The position numbers and the translations under genes are program-made. Below the pieces are notes generated by a model. The model saw nothing but the letters and a program-made list of their open reading frames with translations. It was not told the origin of the DNA and ran no database searches. Below, one piece after another: positions 2,739 through 25,464 of a stretch of 32,000 nt of DNA. Source of the stretch: Nitratidesulfovibrio vulgaris str. Hildenborough (GTDB lineage Bacteria; Desulfobacterota; Desulfovibrionia; Desulfovibrionales; Desulfovibrionaceae); assembly GCF_000195755.1 (NCBI RefSeq), contig NC_002937.3, forward strand, positions 1,560,001 to 1,592,000. The letters are read 5' to 3'. Position 1 is the first letter of the stretch, and the number at the start of each line of letters is the position of its first letter.

Positions 2739-5518
2739 CAAAATACTCCCATGAGTTGCGTGGGTTCTCCGCCCACAGTCACATATACGGGAACCTCAAG
2801 CCCTCCATCCATTGCTGTGATGGGGCGGATGGATCCAGAAGGTGTGTTGAGAGCAAAGTCCACATCGACAGTCTGTCCGTCGGCGGGGTGGCCTGTAGCT
2901 GTCACTGCGATACGGTAGGCAAAGCCGACCTCAAGGTTGCGCACGATGAATGACGGATCCGCTGTCGTTCCAGCGAGCCACCAAGCATTGCCTCCACTGC
3001 CAAGCTTGCGCACGAAGATGGACCAACGCATGGCATCACCACGCCACGCGAGTGACACAAGGCGTTTGGCCACAAGGTCCTCTGTGACCTGCATGAGGGT
3101 TGCCACCAGAGCTGTGACGCTCGGCAGCGTGGCGCTGGATGGGATGCTCGGCGGCTGGCCTTCGTCGGCGTATACGGCCTCGTCGTACTCCAGTGCCTCG
3201 ATCTGCACCCGCATGTCTTGCGTGCGTGCGATGGAGAGCACGCGATACCATCGGGCGTTGCGTCCAAGCTCTCCCACTGTCACCGTGGCTGTTTCGGACG
3301 GGGCGAATTGAAGGGGGGCAGCAAGGTGCAAGGTGCTCGTGGAGGTGTGTTGCGAGACAGGAGCGAGGGTAACCGACTCGTGGAGCTCGTTGCCTGTGTC
3401 CGCGCATTGCCGGTCTACATGCCGAACAAGTACTTGATAGGTAGTTCCGGGTTCGAGGGTCACAGGCCTGTTGAGGGTGATTTCCGTGGGTGTGGCCGTG
3501 AGTACGCGTGCGGACTGTGTACGGTGCAGTAGATCATGTGCGATCTGGATGATGCGCCCGGGAGCGACGTGCGAGCCTAAGGCGTCGACATTGCATCGCA
3601 GGCTGATTGTGCGGGCCAGATACCGGTTGCATCTATCCATGTAGCGAGCCCAGCGGTATGCCTGTGCTTCCGTCGTGCAGGGATAGAGGGTTTCCTGCCG
3701 GATTCTCGGGGTACGGCCTGCAATGATCCCGTATTTTTCACCGGGGACGAAAAGCGTTTCCGGCCCGCGTTCGGGGTGGAACCATGTCACTTCCCAAGCA
3801 TCGGCCCGGTCTGTCAGGGCTGCATACCCTACACCGCATGTGCCGTTGAGGATGTTGGCTGGCGTGACCAACAGTCCTTGATCGGGGAATTGTTCAGGTC
3901 TGTCGCTGATACACCCAATGCTGGTGCCACGAGGGAGGATGCGGAACCTTCCGAATCGACCGAGATAGGACGCCGCTGTTTCAAAGTTCATATCGGTGTC
4001 AAAGTACATCGCGCCTGTGATGCCTTTCTCGTCACACCACGCGGCTGCATCCGCAAAGTCTTGGAGCGCGACTTGCGACACTGGCCAAGCGACCCCGTAG
4101 CGGCGGTTTAGCAACAGGTCGAGTGCCATCCATGCGGGGTTGCTAGCAGGCCGGGAGACAGTTCCACCGTTACCGTCCGGCAGGGGCAGGGTAGAGCGCT
4201 CTGCTGTGCAAGTGACGGTGAAGGCGCTGCCGTTCAGCTGGTCGGTAGCCAGTGCCCGAACCGCGAAAAGAGCCATGTTGGGAAGCCGGAAATCATCAGG
4301 CACGATCTCGTGGCAGTATTCCCACCATGTATCGCTCATATGCCTCGTGTCGCTGGCGGGTGGAGTGTTGAAGCGGACTCGTACCTCGTAGTGGCCAGTT
4401 GGAACGGCATAACGCCAATAGCGACGGACTGCAGCGCGCTGGGATGCGGTGATGGTCTGCGTATCCAAGTGGGTCCAAGCCGTGGCTCCAATGACCCGGC
4501 ATTCTATGTCGATGGTCACAGAGAGAGAATCAAGCCCGCCCTTGTCGTTGGCGTACCACAGCCCCTGCAAGCAGGATATGCCGATACCGATGCTCTGTGT
4601 GTTGTTCCCTGAGAGAGTGACAGTGTGCCAATTGGTGCTGATCTTCACTCCGACAGCCTGTTCACTCACAGCATCATTGAACGCAGGGATGACGCTCTGA
4701 TCGGGCGTTCCCTGTCGGGTTTCGACGACGACTTCGGTGTAGTTGCCGATGGGGTTGCCATTGATTTTCACGTCGGAGATAGCATCAACAGGCCCCTCTC
4801 CTATGATGAAGAGCATGTTCAAGTACTGCTTATCACCGTCCGTGCTGATGAATTGCCCCGCCTTGAATGGGGCAAAGTTCTCCTTTCTACCGTACAGGAT
4901 GGGGACAGGGCGTCCATTTTCGATGGGGTTGGTCGGTGCCCACCCATAGTTGGGTGACTCCTGCAGGGGGTCAGCTCCGATAGCGCGTCCGGATCCCACC
5001 CGGCCCGGAGGAAGTACGGCATTGATCGCGACGGCTCCCCCGACAGCCACGAGACCTCCTGCTATGGCGCCAGCCGTTCCCATCGCACCGGCCATGCCGA
5101 TGGCCGCTTCGGCGGAGATGAGACCTGCGCTCATCATGCCCGACATGGCCCCTGATACGAGCCAGCCTCCTATGGCCGGGGCTGTGACCAGCAATGCAAC
5201 CATGGCCACCGTCGCCAGTGGGTTTTTCCCTCCGCCTCCTCCCAAGGGGATGACGGTAGCAAGCACCGCATCACCGGGTTGCAGATCGTATATCTCCGCT
5301 TCGAAGAGCGTCAGCTTGCGGCCATTGATGGCAAACTGGATGTCGAAGGCCTCTGGGAGCTCGAATTCAGACGGGATGACTTCGGCAATGCGTAGTCCGG
5401 GGCGCCAAGCATGGTAGGCGCTATGCACATCAAGCGGATCGAGCCAGTTGAACGCTGTGGTTACAAGAACGCTAGCCGACTGCATCATAGCTCCAATACC
5501 CTGCCACGCGAGACGCAT
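2738..5518 (-). CDS. Host-specificity/central tail fibre protein (lambda gpJ-like) with an N-terminal gpI-like tail assembly domain (I-J fusion)
   Basis: The N-terminal ~200 aa carry a Gly/Ala-rich hydrophobic stretch plus ...NGRPVPILYGRKE..., as in lambda gpI. The rest matches the gpJ core (NPAWMALDLLLNRRYG, AWEVTWFHPERG, TTEAQAYRWARY..., GRIIQIAHD). Confidence 0.85.
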   Translation of the reverse strand: MRLAWQGIGAMMQSASVLVTTAFNWLDPLDVHSAYHAWRPGLRIAEVIPSEFELPEAFDIQFAINGRKLTLFEAEIYDLQPGDAVLATVIPLGGGGGKNPLATVAMVALLVTAPAIGGWLVSGAMSGMMSAGLISAEAAIGMAGAMGTAGAIAGGLVAVGGAVAINAVLPPGRVGSGRAIGADPLQESPNYGWAPTNPIENGRPVPILYGRKENFAPFKAGQFISTDGDKQYLNMLFIIGEGPVDAISDVKINGNPIGNYTEVVVETRQGTPDQSVIPAFNDAVSEQAVGVKISTNWHTVTLSGNNTQSIGIGISCLQGLWYANDKGGLDSLSVTIDIECRVIGATAWTHLDTQTITASQRAAVRRYWRYAVPTGHYEVRVRFNTPPASDTRHMSDTWWEYCHEIVPDDFRLPNMALFAVRALATDQLNGSAFTVTCTAERSTLPLPDGNGGTVSRPASNPAWMALDLLLNRRYGVAWPVSQVALQDFADAAAWCDEKGITGAMYFDTDMNFETAASYLGRFGRFRILPRGTSIGCISDRPEQFPDQGLLVTPANILNGTCGVGYAALTDRADAWEVTWFHPERGPETLFVPGEKYGIIAGRTPRIRQETLYPCTTEAQAYRWARYMDRCNRYLARTISLRCNVDALGSHVAPGRIIQIAHDLLHRTQSARVLTATPTEITLNRPVTLEPGTTYQVLVRHVDRQCADTGNELHESVTLAPVSQHTSTSTLHLAAPLQFAPSETATVTVGELGRNARWYRVLSIARTQDMRVQIEALEYDEAVYADEGQPPSIPSSATLPSVTALVATLMQVTEDLVAKRLVSLAWRGDAMRWSIFVRKLGSGGNAWWLAGTTADPSFIVRNLEVGFAYRIAVTATGHPADGQTVDVDFALNTPSGSIRPITAMDGGLEVPVYVTVGGEPTQLMGVF

Positions 5519-5900
5519 ACGGTGCTTCGGTCACGGTTGAGGTGTGGACGCCAGCTTCATTGAGAATGTGAACGAAGCGCCCTCTGCCGATGTACGTCGC
5601 AAAATGGTTAACAGCGCGGACGGCTCGTGCATCATGGCGTAGCGCGACAATGCACGGGATGACCGGGCTACCAAGGTGGACCCATATTCTCCGTTCGCGT
5701 TGGGCCCTGAATTCACGCGCGATGGCAAGTAGCTGCTCAGGGTCATGATGGAAGTCCGGCAGCTCGACCCCGAATAAGCGGTGGGTTGCCATTACGAGTC
5801 CCCAACAGTCGAAGCGAGGCGTCCCTGTTGCGGGATCCAGTTCTCCACGCCCTCCCTTCGCGTAACGTGCAGTGTAGAGTTCGGTCAGGCTAAAGCACAT
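5472..5900 (-). CDS. NlpC/P60-family tail assembly protein (lambda gpK / GTA g14-like)
   Basis: Motifs FDCWGLV (catalytic Cys) and ...NHFATYIG.GRFVHI (His) are typical of the NlpC/P60 fold. Positioned between the gpL-like and gpJ-like genes. Confidence 0.8.
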   Translation of the reverse strand: MCFSLTELYTARYAKGGRGELDPATGTPRFDCWGLVMATHRLFGVELPDFHHDPEQLLAIAREFRAQRERRIWVHLGSPVIPCIVALRHDARAVRAVNHFATYIGRGRFVHILNEAGVHTSTVTEAPYASRVAGYWSYDAVG

Positions 5901-6795
5901 AGTGTGCTCCTTTGCCGCAGAAGGGCACTCCGCCGAATAATTCGTTCCGGCCCGGATCGAGTGAGGCGGCGATTTCCCGGCATCGCGTCAGGGTGTGGTC
6001 GCATGTCCGCACGTGTGGGCAATCCTCCACTTGTCGCCACGTGCAGTAGTCGCGCAGGATCCGGCGTCCTATCACTGCTCCCCACACGTCGGGCCCTCCC
6101 ACCTCGATGGAAATCCAATCCATAGGCGGGGCGCATGATATCGATGCGTCCTGGAAGACGTACTCTGCGGTCGGGGCTGCTTCTGCTAAGAGATTCGTAT
6201 TGACGATGATGAGACGGCATCCCACCGGTTCTCGACCATTGGCTTTGCGCCAGTCTTCAAGTTGTTCCATCCAGCGGAGAGCGATGCCGTTTGCGTTGGA
6301 GACCCGTAGCTGCAGGGTTGCACGGCGGGCTCCTTCCCCCTCACGGTATTGTCCCAAGTCGAAGTTGAAGGCCTGCCAGATGTGTGAGCCGGGGCCTGAT
6401 ATGATTCCCCGCACTTCCCCTTCGAACAGCTCTCCCGCGATAAGCCGGTAGGTGGCCGCTGGTTGGGCGTCAATCTGCACCGCGTCGGGCTTGGTGAAGC
6501 TGGCCACGGTCTCCCACGTTGTGCCAGCTTGTCGTTGTAGTTCGATGGTGCCAGCGTCGATACCCGCATCGAGTGATACGGTCACCGCGCCGTACTCCCT
6601 CAATGTGTAGGCGATCGTGTCGGCAGGGGCGGAGAGGGTGCCTGTGGTGGCATCGATGTTCGGCCACGCCCACGAACGTGGATCACGTGCCAGCCGGATC
6701 GTTGTTCCATCCGGCAAAGCCAGTTCCGCCAGAACGATGTACGGATGCTCGCTGTGCGTGCGGTTCCGTTCGATGATTTCAGAGAGGCTGGGCAT
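5890..6795 (-). CDS. Minor tail protein, DUF2163/BR0599-like (gpL / GTA g13 position)
   Basis: The C-terminal CDHTLTRCREI...FGGVPF motif is characteristic of the BR0599 domain. Synteny with the NlpC/P60 and J-like genes. Confidence 0.7.
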   Translation of the reverse strand: MPSLSEIIERNRTHSEHPYIVLAELALPDGTTIRLARDPRSWAWPNIDATTGTLSAPADTIAYTLREYGAVTVSLDAGIDAGTIELQRQAGTTWETVASFTKPDAVQIDAQPAATYRLIAGELFEGEVRGIISGPGSHIWQAFNFDLGQYREGEGARRATLQLRVSNANGIALRWMEQLEDWRKANGREPVGCRLIIVNTNLLAEAAPTAEYVFQDASISCAPPMDWISIEVGGPDVWGAVIGRRILRDYCTWRQVEDCPHVRTCDHTLTRCREIAASLDPGRNELFGGVPFCGKGAHYVL

Positions 6796-6798
6796 GGT

Positions 6799-7149
6799 CT
6801 AAGCCTCTCTGACGATTTGTAGCTGTAGGTCTACGGCATACGTGCCGGGCTGTGAGCCCGACTGAGACCAGCGGGGAGAGTTCGGCTTGAGGCGTACGAC
6901 ATACGCCTTGGCTGTCGTGGGGTGCAGCCACAGAAAGCGCACAGCACGGTGCGACGCGCAGAAGGAGCGCAGGCTCTCGAATTGTGCAATACGGAGGCGA
7001 GGCCATTTAAGCGTCATCACCCCTTCACGAGGCGTACTGAATACGGGGCGCGCAGCGTCATCGCCGGATTCGAACTCTGATTCAATGTACGGGTCGTTTA
7101 CACATCGATCGATGCTTGTCGGGGCCGCGATGGTCGGAAAGGTATCCAT
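6799..7149 (-). CDS. Minor tail protein (gpM position), hypothetical
   Basis: ATG 7147-7149 lies 2 nt after the tape-measure stop, and its stop lies 3 nt before the next start. The call rests on synteny only. Confidence 0.6.
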   Translation of the reverse strand: MDTFPTIAAPTSIDRCVNDPYIESEFESGDDAARPVFSTPREGVMTLKWPRLRIAQFESLRSFCASHRAVRFLWLHPTTAKAYVVRLKPNSPRWSQSGSQPGTYAVDLQLQIVREA

Positions 7150-7151
7150 GG

Positions 7152-9950
7152 CTACCCCCCTGTGGCCACCGCATCGCGGAAGCCCATATAGTTGTTCCGG
7201 AGACTGTCGATCACGATGGTCATTACTTCGCGTCTTCGAGTGTCGTTGAAGTCGATGTGGGTGGACGTAATCTGCATGGGCGTGCCGCTTTCGTTGACAA
7301 TGCGCACCTCCATGTCACGGGGACCAGAGGCCTCCACAGGAGCTAGGCGCTTCATCTGTTCAGGGGTGAAGACCCCTTCGCCTCGTTTGAGGATTGCGGG
7401 GATCTCGTCGCTGGCGATACCACCACCATGATAACGCGGAGCATGGGTGTAGAGTCCAGAAGGCACGGCACGGGCAAAGGTGGCTTCCGCTCCGGCAATA
7501 CCCCCGGTGTGGTTGCCGAATCCGAGGATCTTGCCGAAGTCAAAGCCGCCGAATGCGGATGCCAGAGGGCCGGTGATGCTCTGGCGGATCTGGGCTCGTG
7601 CCAGATCTGCGATTACCGAGTCGACGAAGCTGGAGAAGTCCATCTTGCCCTTGGTGACGAAGTTGACCAGGGCGTCCTCCATGGATCTGAATGCTCCGGA
7701 GACCGCAGCCTCCATGCTCTTGGCCACATTCTTGGCCTCATCCGCATAGTCTCGAAGGCCGCGCTTGATGCCGTCGGATCCAGCGCGTGATAGGCGTAAA
7801 CGCTGCTCTTCGTACCACGCATCAAGCAGCTCTTTGTCCTGAACATGCTTGGAGTATGTCGCGAATTCCTGTTGCAGGACTCGTTGCTGCAGATCCGTGC
7901 GCCCTTTGAGTGTAGAGGCCGCTTTGCCGAGGAATTGAACATTGATTTCTTCAATGCGCTGTTGGCTTTTGAGCTCAAGCAATTCTCTGGCCTTCGCTTC
8001 TTCCTCCATGCGCTGCTGCGGGCTGGCCGCTCGCCACTCGTCGCTCTGCTTCCATTTCTCGATTGAGGAGAGCCCCCTTAGCCGCTCCATTTCAACGGCA
8101 TCCAGTCTGTTTCCGCCAATCGATTGCCGGTACACGGAGAGCTCTGCGGAGCGTTCGCGCGCTTGCTCCCCCCATCGTGTGATGGCTCCGTGGTATTGCT
8201 GCGGCGTCATGCCCAGCGAGAACGCCTTTTCAGCCTCTTGGCGCCATACCCGCATCTCCGGCGTCACGCTGCCAATGGTGCGTTGTAGTTTGGCGAAGCG
8301 CTGCTCAAATTGCTCTTGGGCTAAAGCAACGTCATCGCCGGATAGGCGGAGTACCTCTTCGTGCACCTCGCGCATGGCGTCTGACACTTTGTTTTGCTCC
8401 GAAGCATTGCTCCGCGTGATGCTTTTCAGCTTTTCGTTTCGCTCGGCTTCGACAGCCGCGATCTGCTGATTGTAAAGCGTGGCGTTGGCCAGATCTGCAT
8501 CGCGTGCAGCGGAGAGTTTGCGGATGGCCTCTTCTGCTTCGTTATTGATCTTCTTTATCTTTTCAGCTTCAGACTCTTTCATGAACGCAGAATAGGCAGA
8601 CCGGGCCGCACCAGTGATGCGCTCTATGCGGACACTATCTGACGTCTGGTCGGCGAAGGCGCCATCGCGTTGGCGCTGGCCAGCGTTTTTGCGCCACAGG
8701 TATTCATCTATCTGCGCTTGTGAGTAGCCATACTGCCCTTCGCCGATCAGCTCTTTGCCCTTGATGCCCAAGGCCTGCATTTCAGCGATGATGGAGCGGC
8801 GCTGGGCATTCGCTTCCATCGCGTCAGTAGCGTTCTTTAGGGCGCTTGATACGGCTTCGATGCCGCGCACTACGGCATCGGTATCCATGACACTGGCCTT
8901 GAAGCGTTCCCATTCCGTGGATAGGCGGTTGACTGCGGCCACGCTTTCAGACGCTGCGCCGGCGTATTCCGAGCGCAGGACGTTAGCCAGCTTGGGGAGC
9001 AGGTCGTCCGCGAGCACTTGTCCTTGTTCCAGCATCTTATCGAGCTCAGCCGTGGTGACGCCCATTGCCCGTGCCGCAAGGTTGAATGCCCCCGGCAAGC
9101 GTTCGCCGAGTTGGCCTCTAAGCTCCTCTGCCTGAACCTTCCCCTTCGACATCATCTGCGACAGCGCGATGAACACGCCGTTCATGTCGTCTTGCGAGAG
9201 CGCCAAAGCCGCTCCGGCTTGTGAGACAGCTTCAAAGATGCCTCTTGCATCGGCCTCCATACTTGTTCCCTTGGAGGCGGCGAAGAATGATTTGGCGGCA
9301 GCGGCAGTGGTTTGGAACTGCAGCCCGAGCCTGTTGCTTACTTCGTAGATGAACTGGAGCTGCTCTCGGGCGCCAGCGCTGCTGCCGGTGACGGTGGTAT
9401 AGGCACGGTTCAGCCTGTCGGCCTGCATTGCGGCATCGAAGCAGGCCTTAGCTGCTGCACCGGCAGCAAGCCCGATAGCCGCCACGTAGGGTACGGCCGA
9501 CATGGCCGCGCTCCCCAGCATTCGAGCACCACCTGTAACGTCGCCGCTCTTGATGCGGAATGACGCGAGCTCCATCGTGGACATGCCCGCGGCCTTACCA
9601 AGTGAAGAGAAGGCGCGCTCGGCTTCATTGATGGCCTTTTGTTCTAGAACTCGCTGCTGCAGTTGGCGGAGCCCGACCTCGGACAAGCCAGTGATCTTTG
9701 TCAGTGCTCCGAGTTCGGCTCCAAGCTTGGAGAAGTCGGTGCCCACTGCGGACGCTCGTCGCCCGACTTTCGAGAGATTATCCGTTAAGCCAGCAAGTGC
9801 GCTTTCAGCCTGCTTCGGTGAGATGGCACTATTCATGGCGTCAGCGATACCCGCAGCTTCCTGGCGGACAATCACTTTCGCGGCATTCAGATCTTGTTTG
9901 AGCTGTGAGTAGTCGCCGCTGATGACAACGGATACTCCGGGAATGCGCAT
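7152..9950 (-). CDS. Tail tape measure protein
   Basis: About 930 aa, Ala/Gln/Glu-rich helical protein. The C-terminal lambda-type TMP region reads NHTGGIAG...HAPRYHGGGI...PAILKRGEGVFTPEQM. Start chosen at ATG 9948-9950 (MRIPGV) with GGAGG 4 nt upstream. The track start at 9971 is a TTG. Confidence 0.9.
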   Translation of the reverse strand: MRIPGVSVVISGDYSQLKQDLNAAKVIVRQEAAGIADAMNSAISPKQAESALAGLTDNLSKVGRRASAVGTDFSKLGAELGALTKITGLSEVGLRQLQQRVLEQKAINEAERAFSSLGKAAGMSTMELASFRIKSGDVTGGARMLGSAAMSAVPYVAAIGLAAGAAAKACFDAAMQADRLNRAYTTVTGSSAGAREQLQFIYEVSNRLGLQFQTTAAAAKSFFAASKGTSMEADARGIFEAVSQAGAALALSQDDMNGVFIALSQMMSKGKVQAEELRGQLGERLPGAFNLAARAMGVTTAELDKMLEQGQVLADDLLPKLANVLRSEYAGAASESVAAVNRLSTEWERFKASVMDTDAVVRGIEAVSSALKNATDAMEANAQRRSIIAEMQALGIKGKELIGEGQYGYSQAQIDEYLWRKNAGQRQRDGAFADQTSDSVRIERITGAARSAYSAFMKESEAEKIKKINNEAEEAIRKLSAARDADLANATLYNQQIAAVEAERNEKLKSITRSNASEQNKVSDAMREVHEEVLRLSGDDVALAQEQFEQRFAKLQRTIGSVTPEMRVWRQEAEKAFSLGMTPQQYHGAITRWGEQARERSAELSVYRQSIGGNRLDAVEMERLRGLSSIEKWKQSDEWRAASPQQRMEEEAKARELLELKSQQRIEEINVQFLGKAASTLKGRTDLQQRVLQQEFATYSKHVQDKELLDAWYEEQRLRLSRAGSDGIKRGLRDYADEAKNVAKSMEAAVSGAFRSMEDALVNFVTKGKMDFSSFVDSVIADLARAQIRQSITGPLASAFGGFDFGKILGFGNHTGGIAGAEATFARAVPSGLYTHAPRYHGGGIASDEIPAILKRGEGVFTPEQMKRLAPVEASGPRDMEVRIVNESGTPMQITSTHIDFNDTRRREVMTIVIDSLRNNYMGFRDAVATGG

Positions 9951-21886: not shown

Positions 21887-21972
21887 GGCTACGCTCCTGT
21901 TTGAGAGAAGCGTAGAACGATGGGGTGGGGGAAAGGCAAGGAAGGCAGGCTTGGAAACGGGGGTTTACAAGC

Positions 21973-21997
21973 AAAAAGCCTCGGTTCAAACCGAGGC
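21973..21997 (-). terminator. Rho-independent terminator after the PemK/MazF-like gene
   Basis: - strand RNA: GCCUCGG-UUUGAA-CCGAGGC followed by UUUUU (plus-strand A run 21973-21977). Confidence 0.65.
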
Positions 21998-22049
21998 GCT
22001 TCCGTACAAAGGCAGGTGGAGGGTCAAAGGCAATCCTGTACTTTTGACA

Positions 22050-22439
22050 TTATGATGATAACCCTGCTTTTTTCAAACTCTGTTTGGCTTGAGGGCTAGC
22101 AAATGTTTCACGTAACAGAGAAAGAACTTCAGAGATTTTTGCGTCACTCAATCTGCCGCTCACTCGGCGAATGATTTTTTTATGCACGGTTGCCAAGCGA
22201 ACAGGCCGAACGTACGAAGGTTCGTAGATTAAATTCCCATTTTCAATGTCTTTGCTGGTAATTTCAATGCAATCCTCAAAATTTGACTTCCTTTTGGTAA
22301 TCATGCAAACCAGCACATCATCGCCCATAACTTGAGCCACGATAAGTGTCGGACGATCTTTTGTTTCAGACATGTCTGTCGCGGGGAAATCACAATAAAC
22401 AATATCCCCGACGGAGTAATTACACGAGGTTTTATCCAT
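22050..22439 (-). CDS. PemK/MazF-family toxin-like protein
   Basis: Motifs VGDIVYCDFP...ETKDRPTLIVAQ...DVLVCMITKRK...YVRPVRLATV...GRLSDAKISEVL match the PemK/MazF SH3-like barrel pattern. ATG 22437-22439 overlaps the upstream stop by 8 nt. The track start at 22448 is a TTG. Lies in the AT-rich island. Confidence 0.75.
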   Translation of the reverse strand: MDKTSCNYSVGDIVYCDFPATDMSETKDRPTLIVAQVMGDDVLVCMITKRKSNFEDCIEITSKDIENGNLIYEPSYVRPVRLATVHKKIIRRVSGRLSDAKISEVLSLLRETFASPQAKQSLKKAGLSS

Positions 22440-22995
22440 GGCTCGCAAGAAAAGTTTCGGCAGACAACGTAGTACAAACGTCTGTCAGTTTTTCAATTTC
22501 ATCAAGCTCTTCTAAATACTCAATGAAAAGATTATGCTCCCTCCCTGTCACGTTGCGATACGCTTGGGAGAACTGCACAAAGCGTTTTTCATCCTTTGCA
22601 GCGAAAGCCCACTGTACGAGAGAGCCGAGCACTTTTTCGTCGCCTTTTATGCTATCATATATAGTCATTATGAGGTTGATTGCATCCAAGAATTGTCCTG
22701 CATAGGACATTGAAACGGCGTAATTCAAAATCAAAACATCTTCCTGCACAAATTGAAGTGAGCGCTTATGGTACTTGTGCATCAAGTCCCATTGCCCACG
22801 CGCAGCCGCAACACTTCCCAAAGCTGAAAGTCCCACGGGCACATTAAGATTCTGTAAATCGGTAGCCTTTTTTTGGATGTCGCGCAGCTTTCTCGCCAAA
22901 GACAGCTCATCAGTCTTTGAATGAACTACAACGTTCAATTCGCCTATTATGTCGTTAAACATAGAGATATGTGCGGGCAACGGCTGGGAATGCAT
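22432..22995 (-). CDS. 187-aa all-helical (TPR-like?) protein in the antitoxin position; no recognised family
   Basis: ATG 22993-22995 with a GAGGA RBS. AT-rich codon usage identical to the downstream toxin gene. Acidic C-terminal segment (EYLEELDEIEKLTD). Confidence 0.65.
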   Translation of the reverse strand: MHSQPLPAHISMFNDIIGELNVVVHSKTDELSLARKLRDIQKKATDLQNLNVPVGLSALGSVAAARGQWDLMHKYHKRSLQFVQEDVLILNYAVSMSYAGQFLDAINLIMTIYDSIKGDEKVLGSLVQWAFAAKDEKRFVQFSQAYRNVTGREHNLFIEYLEELDEIEKLTDVCTTLSAETFLASHG

Positions 22996-23058
22996 AGGTA
23001 ATCCTCAAAGGGCTAGATATCCAGCGTGTAGCCTTCTGCCCTATATTCACTAATACAC

Positions 23059-23081
23059 AAAAAAAAACAACCCCGCCGGGG
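23059..23081 (-). terminator. Possible weak terminator ending the early-right operon
   Basis: On the - strand: CCCC-GGC-GGGG mini-hairpin, then UUG and a U9 run (plus-strand A9 at 23059-23067). The stem is only 4 bp. Confidence 0.35.
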
Positions 23082-23103
23082 CTAAACGAACAATGAGGAC
23101 GTA

Positions 23104-23334
23104 TCACCTAGAACACCTGCCCGGCAAAGTCAATTTGGACGCCGAATCGACTCCGCTAGCAGTCGAATTCCACCTTACCCATGCGCAATGGGGTTCCCTG
23201 CGCGTGCCGGTGGCGCCACAGCCGGGGCAAACGTAGTCTGCATCTCGATCGTCCGGGCCGTAAACACGGGAAAACCTGAACCGAAGTTGAGTCCCGCAAT
23301 CCGGGCACAATGGAGCCCACGAAGGCCTCGCCAT
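23104..23334 (-). CDS. Small zinc-ribbon protein (CxxC...CxxC), hypothetical
   Basis: Contains ...LCPDCGTQL... and ...YVCPGCGATG. GGAGGA RBS. Last gene of the early-right operon. Confidence 0.55.
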   Translation of the reverse strand: MARPSWAPLCPDCGTQLRFRFSRVYGPDDRDADYVCPGCGATGTRREPHCAWVRWNSTASGVDSASKLTLPGRCSR

Positions 23335-23597: not shown

Positions 23598-24078
23598 ATT
23601 CCCACGCTCCTCCTTTGCCTGCTTTGACAGCCACGAACGTGAACCACGGCTTCTGCTTGGCTGCGACCTTGATTTTGACTCGGGCATCGTCCTCCCAATG
23701 CCCTTTGACCTCGTGGAGTTCCACGCTTCCATCCGCGCAGATGACGAGGAAGTCCGGGGTGTAGAACGTCTTTTCCGCAAGTCTCAGTTTGACCCCTTCG
23801 TAGTCCCATCCCACGATGTGCCCGGCCAGCATCAGCCCCTCCAAGTGCTCGGCGTAGCGCGCTTCGGTCTTGTTCATGCCCTCGGTGCGGTAGCTGCGCC
23901 CAGAAGAGGGGAGCCGCCCCTTTGCGCGTGAGTGGCTTACTCGGGACTGTGTTCCGTGCCGTACGTGTTGAGGCTGTGGGCGCAACAGTGGGCGGGAGCC
24001 TTCTTGGGCCTGCTTGCGGCTCCATGCTTCAAGCCCTCCGGCCGCGCGGATCTCTGCCGAGGTGGCGGTGATGGTCAC
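23584..24078 (-). CDS. DUF1064-family protein (PD-(D/E)xK-like phage nuclease fold)
   Basis: ...NKTEARYAEHLEGL...YTPDFLVICADGSVELHEVKG...KIKVAA is the DUF1064 pattern. GTG 24076-24078 forms a GTGA overlap with the upstream stop, with AAGGAGAG upstream. Confidence 0.7.
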   Translation of the reverse strand: MTITATSAEIRAAGGLEAWSRKQAQEGSRPLLRPQPQHVRHGTQSRVSHSRAKGRLPSSGRSYRTEGMNKTEARYAEHLEGLMLAGHIVGWDYEGVKLRLAEKTFYTPDFLVICADGSVELHEVKGHWEDDARVKIKVAAKQKPWFTFVAVKAGKGGAWEYERF

Positions 24079-24482
24079 TGATCTCTCCTTTCCGTGCCGC
24101 GGTCGCGTTCGCGTTGCCTGTTGAGCCAAGCCCTTGCCTGTTCTCGGTTGAAGGCCATCTGCTCCTCGAACGGCAGGTGTGGTTCTGGCAATGCTAGCCG
24201 ACGGGACGCATCAAACTCCGCGATGGCTTTGCAGGCGGCGATGGCGTCAGCTATCGAGGGGAACCACCTCGATGTCCTGCGGTGGCGGCGTATGGCCCTC
24301 GTGATGACTTCCGGCGAGAAGTGGGCCAGATCCTCCAGCCATAGGGCAGCCATGCCCATGACTTGCTCCTCCGTTACCCCCGATCCGGGATAGGCCAGGG
24401 TACAATCCGCCAGTGCGTCCACGATCGCCTGTAGCCTCAGCCGCTGGGCGTCCTGTGGCCTTTCCGAGTATCTCGTCGACAT
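24075..24482 (-). CDS. G39P-like helicase loader/inhibitor domain protein
   Basis: LQAIVDALADCTLAYPG...EEQVMGMAALWLEDLAHFSPEVITRAIRRHRRTSRWFPSIADAIAACK fits the SPP1 G39P N-domain pattern (..YP....e....W...L.......v..A...h.....fPs.a.i). GGAGGGG RBS 6 nt upstream. Confidence 0.6.
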   Translation of the reverse strand: MSTRYSERPQDAQRLRLQAIVDALADCTLAYPGSGVTEEQVMGMAALWLEDLAHFSPEVITRAIRRHRRTSRWFPSIADAIAACKAIAEFDASRRLALPEPHLPFEEQMAFNREQARAWLNRQRERDRGTERRDQ

Positions 24483-25464
24483 TGAGTCCCCTCCGTGCTG
24501 CTACGTTGCGTGCGAGTAAGTCCCTTGTGCGCGATGCCTTCTGTGCTTGCGTGGCGACGCGTGGCCCGTCCCGCTGTGGGGGCGTCTGCACCTCGGGTTC
24601 GGCTTTCCACAACTGCCGGGCGATGAAGTTGCCGAGGGATGGCGCGAATCGTCGTGGGACGTCGCTGTCCCATTGGCCAGACGCCTCCCATCGGTCGATG
24701 GCAGCGTAGATCGCGCTTTGTCCGGGCCATGAGCGTGAGGCGAGTGCTGCGCGGTACTCTTTGAAGCCGTCCATGGGGCCACCGACGCGGCCATGGGCGT
24801 TGTAGTACGCTCGCAGCTCCTGCCATTCGAGCGAGGGCATGCTCTCCTCCGGGCCATCAGGCGGCGGCGGGGAGGCAGAGGTGTCGAGGGGGGCTTCGGG
24901 CGTTTCGGAACCGTCCTCGCGCGTGCGCGCGTAAGAGAGAGAATCTTCTCTTACGTAAGTAGGAGCAGGAGTACTACGATCCGTAGTACGGTCGTTGTAC
25001 GCCGTACCTTCGTCGTACGTACGGCGTACATACGGCGTACCTGAGGCGTACATTTGGTACTCGGACGCGGAAATTCCCTTGTATCCGTCGGCCTTTAGCG
25101 CAGCAGCTGTTTCCGGGGCCGTGCGAGCGAGTCGAGATAGCCGGGCTGCATCGCTTCGGTCGTCAGCCTGAGCGGCCCAAGAGTTGTGCTCCTGCCAGTC
25201 ATGGAGTTCCCATGTCCCTTCCTCGCCATCGAGGAATCGCCCGTGAAGCTCGGCTACCAAGGCTCCTTCGTCTCCGAGCCAGTCTGCGGCAAGCTCTACG
25301 TCGAGTGCATCCATGCCGCTGAGGTTGCCATCTGGCCTGTTCTGAGCCGCCCACATCCACAAGATCTGCAGCGAGCGGACGCCTTCCAGTCCGCAGCGCC
25401 GAGCCAATCGCTTGACCTTGGGGTGTGACCAAAACCCGACCGAAAGTCTGATGTCGGTGTTCAT
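24247..25464 (-). CDS. Phage replisome organizer (SPP1 G38P / DnaD-like N-terminal domain), origin-binding candidate
   Basis: The N-terminus IRLSVGFWSHPKVKRLARRCGLEGVRSLQILWMWAAQNRPDGNL matches the replisome-organizer N-domain pattern. ATGA-coupled to the MTase. The last ~78 codons overlap the next gene out of frame and look compositionally abnormal. Confidence 0.65.
   Translation of the reverse strand: MNTDIRLSVGFWSHPKVKRLARRCGLEGVRSLQILWMWAAQNRPDGNLSGMDALDVELAADWLGDEGALVAELHGRFLDGEEGTWELHDWQEHNSWAAQADDRSDAARLSRLARTAPETAAALKADGYKGISASEYQMYASGTPYVRRTYDEGTAYNDRTTDRSTPAPTYVREDSLSYARTREDGSETPEAPLDTSASPPPPDGPEESMPSLEWQELRAYYNAHGRVGGPMDGFKEYRAALASRSWPGQSAIYAAIDRWEASGQWDSDVPRRFAPSLGNFIARQLWKAEPEVQTPPQRDGPRVATQAQKASRTRDLLARNVAARRGLNVDEILGKATGRPAAEATGDRGRTGGLYPGLSRIGGNGGASHGHGCPMAGGSGPLLAGSHHEGHTPPPQDIEVVPLDS
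24971..25060. repeat. Iteron-like array I: ten GTAC cores with 11-bp phasing inside the replisome organizer gene
   Basis: GTAC starts at 24971, 24986, 24997, 25004, 25015, 25019, 25026, 25037, 25048 and 25057. Five consecutive 11-mers (GGCGTACNNNN-like) span 25001-55. The inverted repeat GTACTACG-atc-CGTAGTAC lies at 24971-24989. Confidence 0.75.

Follow-up and report, generated by a model that had tools for sequence, protein, structure and literature searches.

A predicted tetratricopeptide-repeat antitoxin paired with a PemK/MazF-family toxin in a prophage cargo slot of Nitratidesulfovibrio vulgaris Hildenborough

Type II antitoxins usually combine a DNA-binding domain with a disordered toxin-binding tail, and those of the MazE/PemI/Kis type are small proteins of approximately 70–90 aa. 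In this study, we analyzed a 32,000-nucleotide stretch of the chromosome of Nitratidesulfovibrio vulgaris str. Hildenborough (NC_002937.3, positions 1,560,001 to 1,592,000 of the forward strand; hereafter the window, numbered from its first letter), in which the genes DVU1510 and DVU1509 form a two-gene island at 22050–22995 on the minus strand, with the early genes of a prophage on one side and its lysis genes on the other. The toxin of this pair and its general toxin–antitoxin (TA) logic are ordinary, while the antitoxin scaffold and its promiscuity are new. We consider it probable that the island is a horizontally acquired TA cassette carried as a moron in a prophage slot, in which DVU1510, built of tetratricopeptide repeats (TPRs), is the predicted cognate antitoxin of the MazF toxin DVU1509. 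An earlier reading of this DNA, made from the letters alone (hereafter the original prediction), had pointed out the unusual partner of the toxin, and its claims are taken up below along with the results that bear on them.

The downstream gene, DVU1509, encodes a PemK/MazF toxin of 129 aa (22050–22439, minus) when read from the ATG at 22439, the form called by NCBI and in all assemblies; reading from the TTG at 22448 gives a 132-aa product (open reading frame (ORF) 22050–22448, minus). The product was 100% identical to AAS95987.1/WP_010938801.1, annotated as "type II toxin-antitoxin system PemK/MazF family toxin". The segments GDIVYCDFP, KDRPTLIV, and VLVCMITKRK, from which a PemK/MazF pattern had originally been recognized, were all present, and the assignment was confirmed by matches to Pfam PF02452 PemK_toxin (E = 6e-13; 49.4 bits against a cutoff of 23.1; profile positions 3–108 of 109) and to PHROG 1936 "MazF-like growth inhibitor" (E = 9e-14). 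A PDB search with the DVU1509 sequence alone gave no match; a profile built from eight subfamily members matched S. aureus MazF (4mzm) and B. subtilis EndoA/YdcE (4me7, 4mdx, and 1ne8) end to end, with E values of 2.5e-4 to 2e-3. Arg29-Pro30, invariant in all eight subfamily members (Arg29 codon, 22355–22353, minus), was aligned with GVRP of S. aureus MazF and B. subtilis EndoA, and Thr48, which is Ser in one subfamily member (codon 22298–22296, minus), was aligned with AAIT of the solved MazF/EndoA structures. We take these Arg and Thr positions to be equivalent to Arg25 and Thr48, the catalytic residues of MazF in B. subtilis and S. aureus. DVU1509 is, on these matches, a PemK/MazF-family toxin and a predicted endoribonuclease, presumably toxic when unrestrained, and an SH3-like beta-barrel fold is predicted for it from the profile matches only. 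The net charge of its core (residues 1–112) was −1. In addition, DVU1509 bears a basic 17-residue C-terminal extension (residues 113–129, 22050–22103; FASPQAKQSLKKAGLSS) with a net charge of +3, which is absent from all seven homologs compared.

The upstream gene, DVU1510 (22432–22995, minus), encodes a 187-aa product (AAS95988.1/WP_010938802.1) annotated by NCBI as "hypothetical protein". The original prediction had described this partner as an oversized helical or TPR-like protein without a ribbon–helix–helix (RHH), AbrB, or helix–turn–helix (HTH) motif, unlike a MazE/PemI-type antitoxin, and as having an acidic C-terminal segment, and each of these points was borne out. The AlphaFold2 (AF2) model computed from a 31-sequence alignment was all-helical, with ten helices, a predicted local distance difference test (pLDDT) score of 96.8, and a predicted template modeling (pTM) score of 0.86. 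The helices at residues 8–25, 30–50, 52–65, 69–82, 86–98, 102–116, 120–132, 136–150, and 155–186 are arranged as an N-terminal hairpin (8–25 and 30–50), three TPR pairs (52–82, 86–116, and 120–150), and one long C-terminal helix, and the N-terminal module closes at the family motif LTGxxH. The family profile of DVU1510 matched consensus TPR structures over positions 55–150 with E = 2e-21, although the single sequence scored below every Pfam TPR gathering score; with tandem repeats that match TPR profiles, DVU1510 is a TPR protein. No match of DVU1510 to RHH, AbrB, HTH, or MazE_antitoxin models was found in Pfam or NCBIfam, and neither an AbrB/SpoVT or RHH domain nor a length of ~70–90 aa, the marks of a classical MazE/PemI/Kis antitoxin, was seen. 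A Foldseek search with the model, as had been suggested at the outset, returned only generic TPR proteins at a template modeling (TM) score of ~0.55, headed by CTPR, MamA, BepA, and OGT. The tail, residues 155–187 (22435–22533, minus), was modeled as a single long helix NLFIEYLEELDEIEKLTDVCTTLSAETFLASHG with a net charge of −7 and the motif Y..E..E...L(S/T)..C, whereas residues 1–154 (22534–22995, minus) carry a net charge of +1.

The family of DVU1510 is small. A word-indexed search with DVU1510 retrieved only its own cluster and one relative, and the same search retrieved almost nothing for DVU1509 either. When 1.84 billion cluster representatives (clusters at 50% identity) were scanned in full with HMMER, 108 matches were obtained, of which approximately 60 were proteins of 180–280 aa that aligned over their entire length; the others were long multi-TPR proteins matching only positions ~48–100. 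For locus finding, the first family alignment (A2) was too diverse, and a narrower one (A3) was used. MazF-type loci were fetched from Desulfovibrionaceae metagenome-assembled genomes (L003–L006), a metagenome (L007), an IMG/VR contig (L008), and two short assemblies (L023 and L024). In all eight, a MazF homolog (35–53% identity) starts at most 40 nt from the stop of the TPR gene, so that the survey of this family upstream of PemK-like genes proposed in the original prediction turned out positive at every locus. The synteny of the pair is independent of its surroundings, as the flanking genes of the pair-bearing loci (L002–L008, L023, and L024) are unrelated to one another; the putative antitoxin gene thus lies upstream, in one operon with the toxin gene, as a unit kept in unrelated contexts, which is the gene order of type II TA systems. 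Across the eight pairs, the identities of the TPR and MazF proteins co-varied (r = 0.63, Mantel p ~0.003). One further locus, L001, ends six bases after the stop of the TPR gene. At L001 and L004, both chromosomal and from Desulfovibrionaceae, the TPR–MazF pair lies directly downstream of a gene for an anti-sigma-factor kinase (HATPase_c_2) and a STAS antagonist gene; on the IMG/VR contig L008, the pair is abutted on the opposite strand by the gene (4089–7463) for a protein of 1124 aa that contains the "large polyvalent protein" domain LPD38.

Relatives of DVU1510 also stand upstream of toxins other than MazF. For four of them (P0036, P0117, P0119, and P0120; loci L015–L022), the gene immediately downstream encodes a Toxin_YhaV protein (E down to 2.5e-44); P0086 is followed by a ParE_toxin gene (L038–40) and P0045 by a gene for a HEPN protein (L025; 22.7 bits against a cutoff of 22). 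No toxin gene was seen adjacent to P0087 (254 aa; L041). True kinship was distinguished from mere TPR resemblance with a hidden Markov model (HMM) built from residues 1–154 of the MazF-type members only. This module HMM scored 95–118 bits for the YhaV partners, 91 bits for the HEPN partner, and 81 bits for the ParE partner, each match being a single domain that runs to the last position of the model and covers three quarters to nearly all of it, whereas generic TPR proteins reached at most 26 bits over ~50 positions. The motifs MH..HK.S, NYA.SL, and W..LTG..H were common to all groups. Invariant polar residues across the toxin classes (H76, N91, S95, and H154) lie in the scaffold; they could reflect a common ligand and equally a structural role. 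Several of these loci have mobile or defense-related neighbors: at L016–L018, from metagenomes, the TPR–YhaV pair is directly upstream of a DruA (Druantia) homolog and an IS66 transposase, and at L015 and L020–22 it adjoins a phage-type integrase. A further subgroup of 250–277 aa (P0087, P0096, P0100, P0103, P0104, and P0107) joins the TPR module to unrelated C-terminal domains of ~100 aa, which gave no match in a Pfam scan; these proteins may be fused systems or orphans.

Alignability among the groups is lost right after LTG..H, and the ~30–100 residues beyond it follow the toxin type. All MazF partners have tails with Y..E..E...L(S/T)..C, and ~7 of them also carry a W(D/N)(T/S)PEEDxAW extension; the tails of all four YhaV partners read FPEDD...P(D/E)L.V.PD...L(V/I)EGV(E/D); the ParE partner and two other proteins share ..I(S/P)WE.L...(L/M); and the HEPN partner and its relatives have an extra domain of ~100 residues. 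The YhaV-type tail was similar to the C-terminal, toxin-binding half of Pfam PrlF_antitoxin (profile positions 46–91 of 99; E = 0.0074 and 0.17) and aligned with residues 60–105 of E. coli PrlF (hhalign, E = 1e-3; PrlF sequence not drawn from a database record). P0015 (192 aa) combines a scaffold of the MazF clade (185 bits) with a ParE-type tail DSIPWEKVKEELGL, which looks like a recent, direct tail swap. An architecture of helical-repeat domain plus neutralizing tail, as had been proposed for DVU1510, fits these comparative data, in which residues 1–154 are conserved and the tail changes with the toxin. A resemblance to MazE itself was also considered: some relatives have a WxxPxxxExW motif with the spacing of the E. 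coli MazE C-terminus, a lead without statistical support.

Modular type II antitoxins are typically built of a constant N-terminal module and a C-terminal segment specific to the toxin, and their genes lie just ahead of the toxin gene; for this reason, DVU1510 is read as the antitoxin of DVU1509 and residues 155–187 as its neutralizing segment. In the mechanism that we propose, DVU1509 would be a MazF-type, sequence-specific endoribonuclease whose translation would be coupled to that of DVU1510 through the overlap ATGGATAA. The hairpin and three TPRs of residues 1–154 would stand in for an AbrB, RHH, or HTH DNA-binding domain, and residues 155–187 would form a toxin-specific acidic helix that binds and blocks the MazF dimer; both the direct binding through this tail and the neutralization are predicted from comparison of sequences. 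The same scaffold would be reused with other toxins: its tail would be PrlF-like where the toxin is YhaV and of the form ..IPWExL.. where it is ParE, and a C-terminal domain of ~100 aa would take the place of the tail where it is HEPN. The TPR scaffold would therefore represent a promiscuous antitoxin platform. The module itself could serve as a dimerization or stability scaffold, as a handle for a protease or chaperone, or as a sensor.

Set against the canonical MazE–MazF, PemI–PemK, and Kis–Kid systems, the island shares a PemK/MazF toxin that keeps the catalytic Arg and Thr, a partner gene located immediately upstream on the same strand and overlapping the toxin start, a short acidic segment at the end of the partner, and the character of a mobile two-gene unit. 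It differs in that DVU1510 has 187 aa rather than 70–90, consists of a hairpin and three TPRs rather than an AbrB/SpoVT or RHH DNA-binding dimer, showed no detectable sequence similarity to MazE, and has a tail predicted as one long helix rather than an extended chain. Since DVU1510 has no DNA-binding domain, autoregulation by operator binding is not expected. As for PrlF–YhaV, the distant DVU1510 relatives upstream of YhaV end in a segment resembling the C-terminal half of PrlF_antitoxin (below threshold), but in them the TPR scaffold replaces the AbrB-type N-terminal domain of PrlF, and DVU1510 itself has the MazF-type tail.

The closest conceptual parallels are the hubs of Panacea (PanA, DUF4065) and NetFlax, in which a single antitoxin domain occurs together with various unrelated folds of toxin in conserved two-gene operons, often in phages or mobile elements (PMC8832971, PMC10440598); neutralization by direct binding, predicted here, would be a further likeness. 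The DVU1510 family differs from them in its unrelated TPR fold, in its much smaller size (~60 clusters at 50% identity among the 1.84 billion), and in its toxin repertoire, so far four families, all RNases or of the RelE/ParE fold. The main text of the NetFlax paper, supplements aside, has no TPR among the common folds that it lists. Full-text searches found no description of a TPR antitoxin family with MazF, PemK, YhaV, ParE, or HEPN toxins and no mention of the locus tags DVU1509 and DVU1510; one hit for "TPR" proved to be a species abbreviation rather than an antitoxin fold. Pfam, NCBIfam, PHROGs, and PADLOC hold no model for the family. That relatives of DVU1510 go with four unrelated types of toxin, the tail fitting the toxin in each case, suggests that DVU1510 belongs to an undescribed family of interchangeable antitoxins.

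At the nucleotide level, the two genes lie at 1582050–1582439 (DVU1509) and 1582432–1582995 (DVU1510) of the chromosome, both on the minus strand, with tabulated GC contents of 0.418 and 0.4415 (PMC10102598 Suppl. Table 5). The GC content of 22050–23099 was 41–46%, compared with 58–71% on either flank, and 41–44% for the genes compared with ~63% for the host; the abrupt drop that had first been noted by eye is real, at values slightly above the 38–40% estimated then. The island is also bracketed as described at that time, both elements having been found by a terminator scan: the U-rich element of 23059–23081 is the T9 tract of an intrinsic terminator (23059–23084, minus; stem 23084–23068) that ends the early operon after DVU1511, and a second intrinsic terminator (21973–21997, minus; stem 21997–21978, then TTTTT) closes the island 52 nt past the MazF stop, upstream of the endolysin gene. 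The leader between the first terminator and DVU1510 (22996–23058, minus) contains a Shine–Dalgarno (SD) sequence, GAGGA, at 23006–23002, 6 nt ahead of the DVU1510 ATG. The start of DVU1509 and the stop of DVU1510 overlap by 8 nt (ATGGATAA, 22432–22439, minus), as seen in the sequence and in the gene calls of six assemblies, which implies translational coupling, and the MazF ATG lacks a strong SD sequence of its own. The 8-nt overlap of the original prediction thus holds for the 129-aa form starting at ATG 22439, but not for the 132-aa form from TTG 22448 to which it had been attached.

Both genes were present in strain RCH1 and in >260 assemblies, with ORFs intact and identical in Hildenborough and RCH1; one variant contig carried two single-nucleotide polymorphisms (SNPs) in the island. 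No tandem repeat, Rfam match, or other conserved ORF was found in it, and the possibility that the antitoxin is an RNA or a hidden small protein was rejected, since there was neither a tandem repeat nor an Rfam match and only one weak direct repeat. The latter, of 27 nt and 74% identity (22254–22280 and 22983–23009; common sequence TTTGAGGATT), has one copy over the SD and start of DVU1510 and the other within the MazF gene, and is probably due to chance. The GenBank phage collection gave no DNA match to the island or to the surrounding 12 kb.

In the direction of the phage, the island is preceded by genes for a replication initiator, a Holliday-junction resolvase, and two small proteins including the Zn-ribbon protein DVU1511, and is followed by genes for an endolysin, a holin, an HNH endonuclease, a terminase, a portal protein, and a capsid protein (PHROG and Pfam matches). 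Four IMG/VR prophages (L028–L031) have a resolvase, a Zn-ribbon gene like DVU1511, and the endolysin (78–80% identity) in common with this one, and in each of them the slot between the Zn-ribbon gene and the endolysin, equivalent to window positions 21887–23103, holds other low-GC cargo (0.44–0.50, compared with 0.63–0.64 for the whole locus): a 339-aa acyltransferase-like membrane protein (L030), two proteins of 215 and 200 aa (L029), a 90-aa secreted protein (L031), or ~0.9 kb without a clear ORF on the phage strand (L028). The TPR–MazF pair was absent from the slot in all four. This slot is a cargo hot spot where early genes meet lysis genes, and the foreign composition of the island together with the variability of the slot among related prophages places it among the morons, as had been proposed. 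One such moron is stx of the Stx phages, which in lambdoid phages has the late terminator on one side and the lysis genes on the other. Like the morons of lambdoid prophages, the island is a low-GC, terminator-bracketed cassette in a variable slot, downstream of the early-operon terminator and upstream of endolysin and holin; it differs in that its cargo is a TA pair and that a promoter of its own was not detected by the scan.

Two observations concern the neighboring early genes. DVU1511 (23104–23334, minus), the last gene ahead of the terminator at 23084–23059, encodes a 76-aa CxxC...CxxC zinc-ribbon protein with a weak match to DUF7563; a gene like it is kept at the same position in the related prophages (43–53% identity), which raised the question of a role in late-gene antitermination. 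Further upstream, at 24075–25464 (minus), a 405-aa ORF (24247–25464; PHROG replication initiation protein) and a 135-aa ORF (24075–24482) in another frame share 236 nt. They are alternative gene calls, of which some assemblies make one and some the other, as seen on comparing L009 with L010.

Several results weigh against the reading of DVU1510 as the cognate antitoxin of DVU1509. The net charge of the tail varied from +1 to −10 among the MazF-type relatives; as its acidity is not conserved, an RNA-mimicking tail is no rule of the family. The ParE assignment comes from one protein on three near-identical contigs, and the HEPN assignment from a single locus with a score just over the cutoff. 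The similarity of the YhaV-type tail to PrlF was below the Pfam threshold, and the hhalign probability was only 20%. A profile of seven WxxPxxxExW tails gave only noise against the PDB (WDR5, E ~0.7), and the motif is absent from DVU1510. The single-sequence AF2 model of DVU1509 had a pLDDT of 43 and was not used, and the promoter scan detected no consensus sigma-70 promoter in 23058–22996. Furthermore, randomly barcoded transposon sequencing (RB-TnSeq) in two backgrounds and transposon liquid enrichment sequencing (TnLE-seq) scored DVU1510 as non-essential, with insertion densities of 0.235 and 0.243, compared with 0.299 and 0.278 for DVU1509 (PMC10102598 Suppl. Table 5). Non-polar insertions in an antitoxin gene that is strictly required should be underrepresented. 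In the same table (PMC10102598), however, DVU1742, a canonical antitoxin of the Phd type, is scored as non-essential too, so that these data are uninformative on the antitoxin role of DVU1510. Because the MazF start lacks a good SD sequence and overlaps the DVU1510 stop, insertions in DVU1510 should silence the toxin as well, and the dispensability of DVU1510 is probably such a polarity effect.

The same transposon data bear on the view that the TPR protein is an accessory factor, such as an adaptor, a regulator of RNase specificity, or a scaffold, with DVU1509 harmless at native levels or controlled from elsewhere. That insertions are tolerated in DVU1510 about as in DVU1509, that DVU1510 has neither a DNA-binding domain nor MazE-like sequence, and that the core of MazF lacks a strongly basic character (net charge −1, residues 1–112) would all agree with it. 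However, with each of four toxin folds the TPR gene lies upstream and abuts or overlaps the toxin gene, while the tail changes with the toxin, which is the signature of a cognate antitoxin and not of a MazF-specific accessory; moreover, the tail of the YhaV partners resembles the toxin-binding part of PrlF, the conserved catalytic Arg and Thr indicate an RNase that should need an inhibitor, and no alternative antitoxin was found in the island. An accessory role thus appears improbable to us. Even less credit can be given to the notion of a recently acquired, inert cargo, silent or decaying in this host and at present without function. A GC content of 41–44% in a ~63% host indeed points to recent transfer, the promoter scan was negative and the island is immediately preceded by a terminator, and both genes were dispensable in the three transposon data sets, but the ORFs are intact and identical in Hildenborough, RCH1, and >260 assemblies, apart from the two SNPs of one variant contig; none of the catalytic residues, the SD sequence, and the coupling overlap has been lost; and dispensability during growth in the laboratory is the norm for prophage morons and TA modules. 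We therefore regard inert cargo as highly improbable.

A further alternative extends the TA reading rather than contradicting it, namely that DVU1510 is a sensor antitoxin, as the original prediction had suggested, and serves in abortive infection: a phage protein or peptide, or a stress signal of the host, would bind the TPRs, the tail would be released or destabilized, and the freed MazF would shut down translation and so protect the lysogen population from superinfecting phages. Ligand sensing by TPR domains is common in Avs/STAND and RRNPP systems. The location of the island in a prophage moron slot would suit such a role, as would the relatives found on mobile elements or beside defense genes (DruA and IS66 at L016–18, integrases at L015 and L020–22, and the IMG/VR contig L008), and the invariance of H76, N91, S95, and H154 whatever the toxin gives a hint of a shared ligand or binding partner. 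DVU1510 weakly matched the PADLOC "TPR" model (E = 3e-4) and P0117 weakly matched Pfam TPR-S (E = 0.044); these matches point the same way, but they represent generic TPR similarity below curated thresholds; in PADLOC, DVU1509 matched no model and DVU1510 no other than this generic one, and by match to known defense protein models the pair does not classify as a defense system. The conservation of N91 may likewise be structural, since by our assignment by eye this residue presumably occupies a TPR position at which Asn is often conserved, and three repeats with a capping helix could equally well make a plain dimerization or stability scaffold. A sensor antitoxin of this kind seems to us rather unlikely for the present pair. 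The same holds, with about as little confidence, for its broadest form, in which the 154-residue TPR module would be a general sensing platform that holds the tail in a neutralizing state until a ligand of phage or stress origin fills its groove, the tails being swapped across MazF, YhaV, ParE, and HEPN toxins, and the DVU1510–DVU1509 pair would act as a prophage-borne abortive-infection switch.

If the TA reading of DVU1510–DVU1509 is true, the TPR scaffold would extend the known antitoxins by one fold class and would be a further hub in the network of TA modules whose parts are freely combined, and the natural tail-swap series defines the likely neutralizing segment for each toxin. It would give a name to a protein family now "hypothetical" in NCBI and without a name in Pfam and PHROGs, and would flag orphan MazF, YhaV, ParE, and HEPN genes with an overlooked antitoxin. 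D. vulgaris Hildenborough is a genetically tractable sulfate reducer, with deletion tools, barcoded transposon libraries, and inducible prophages. As TPR domains are classic ligand binders, the family is also a plausible place for trigger-sensing antitoxins.

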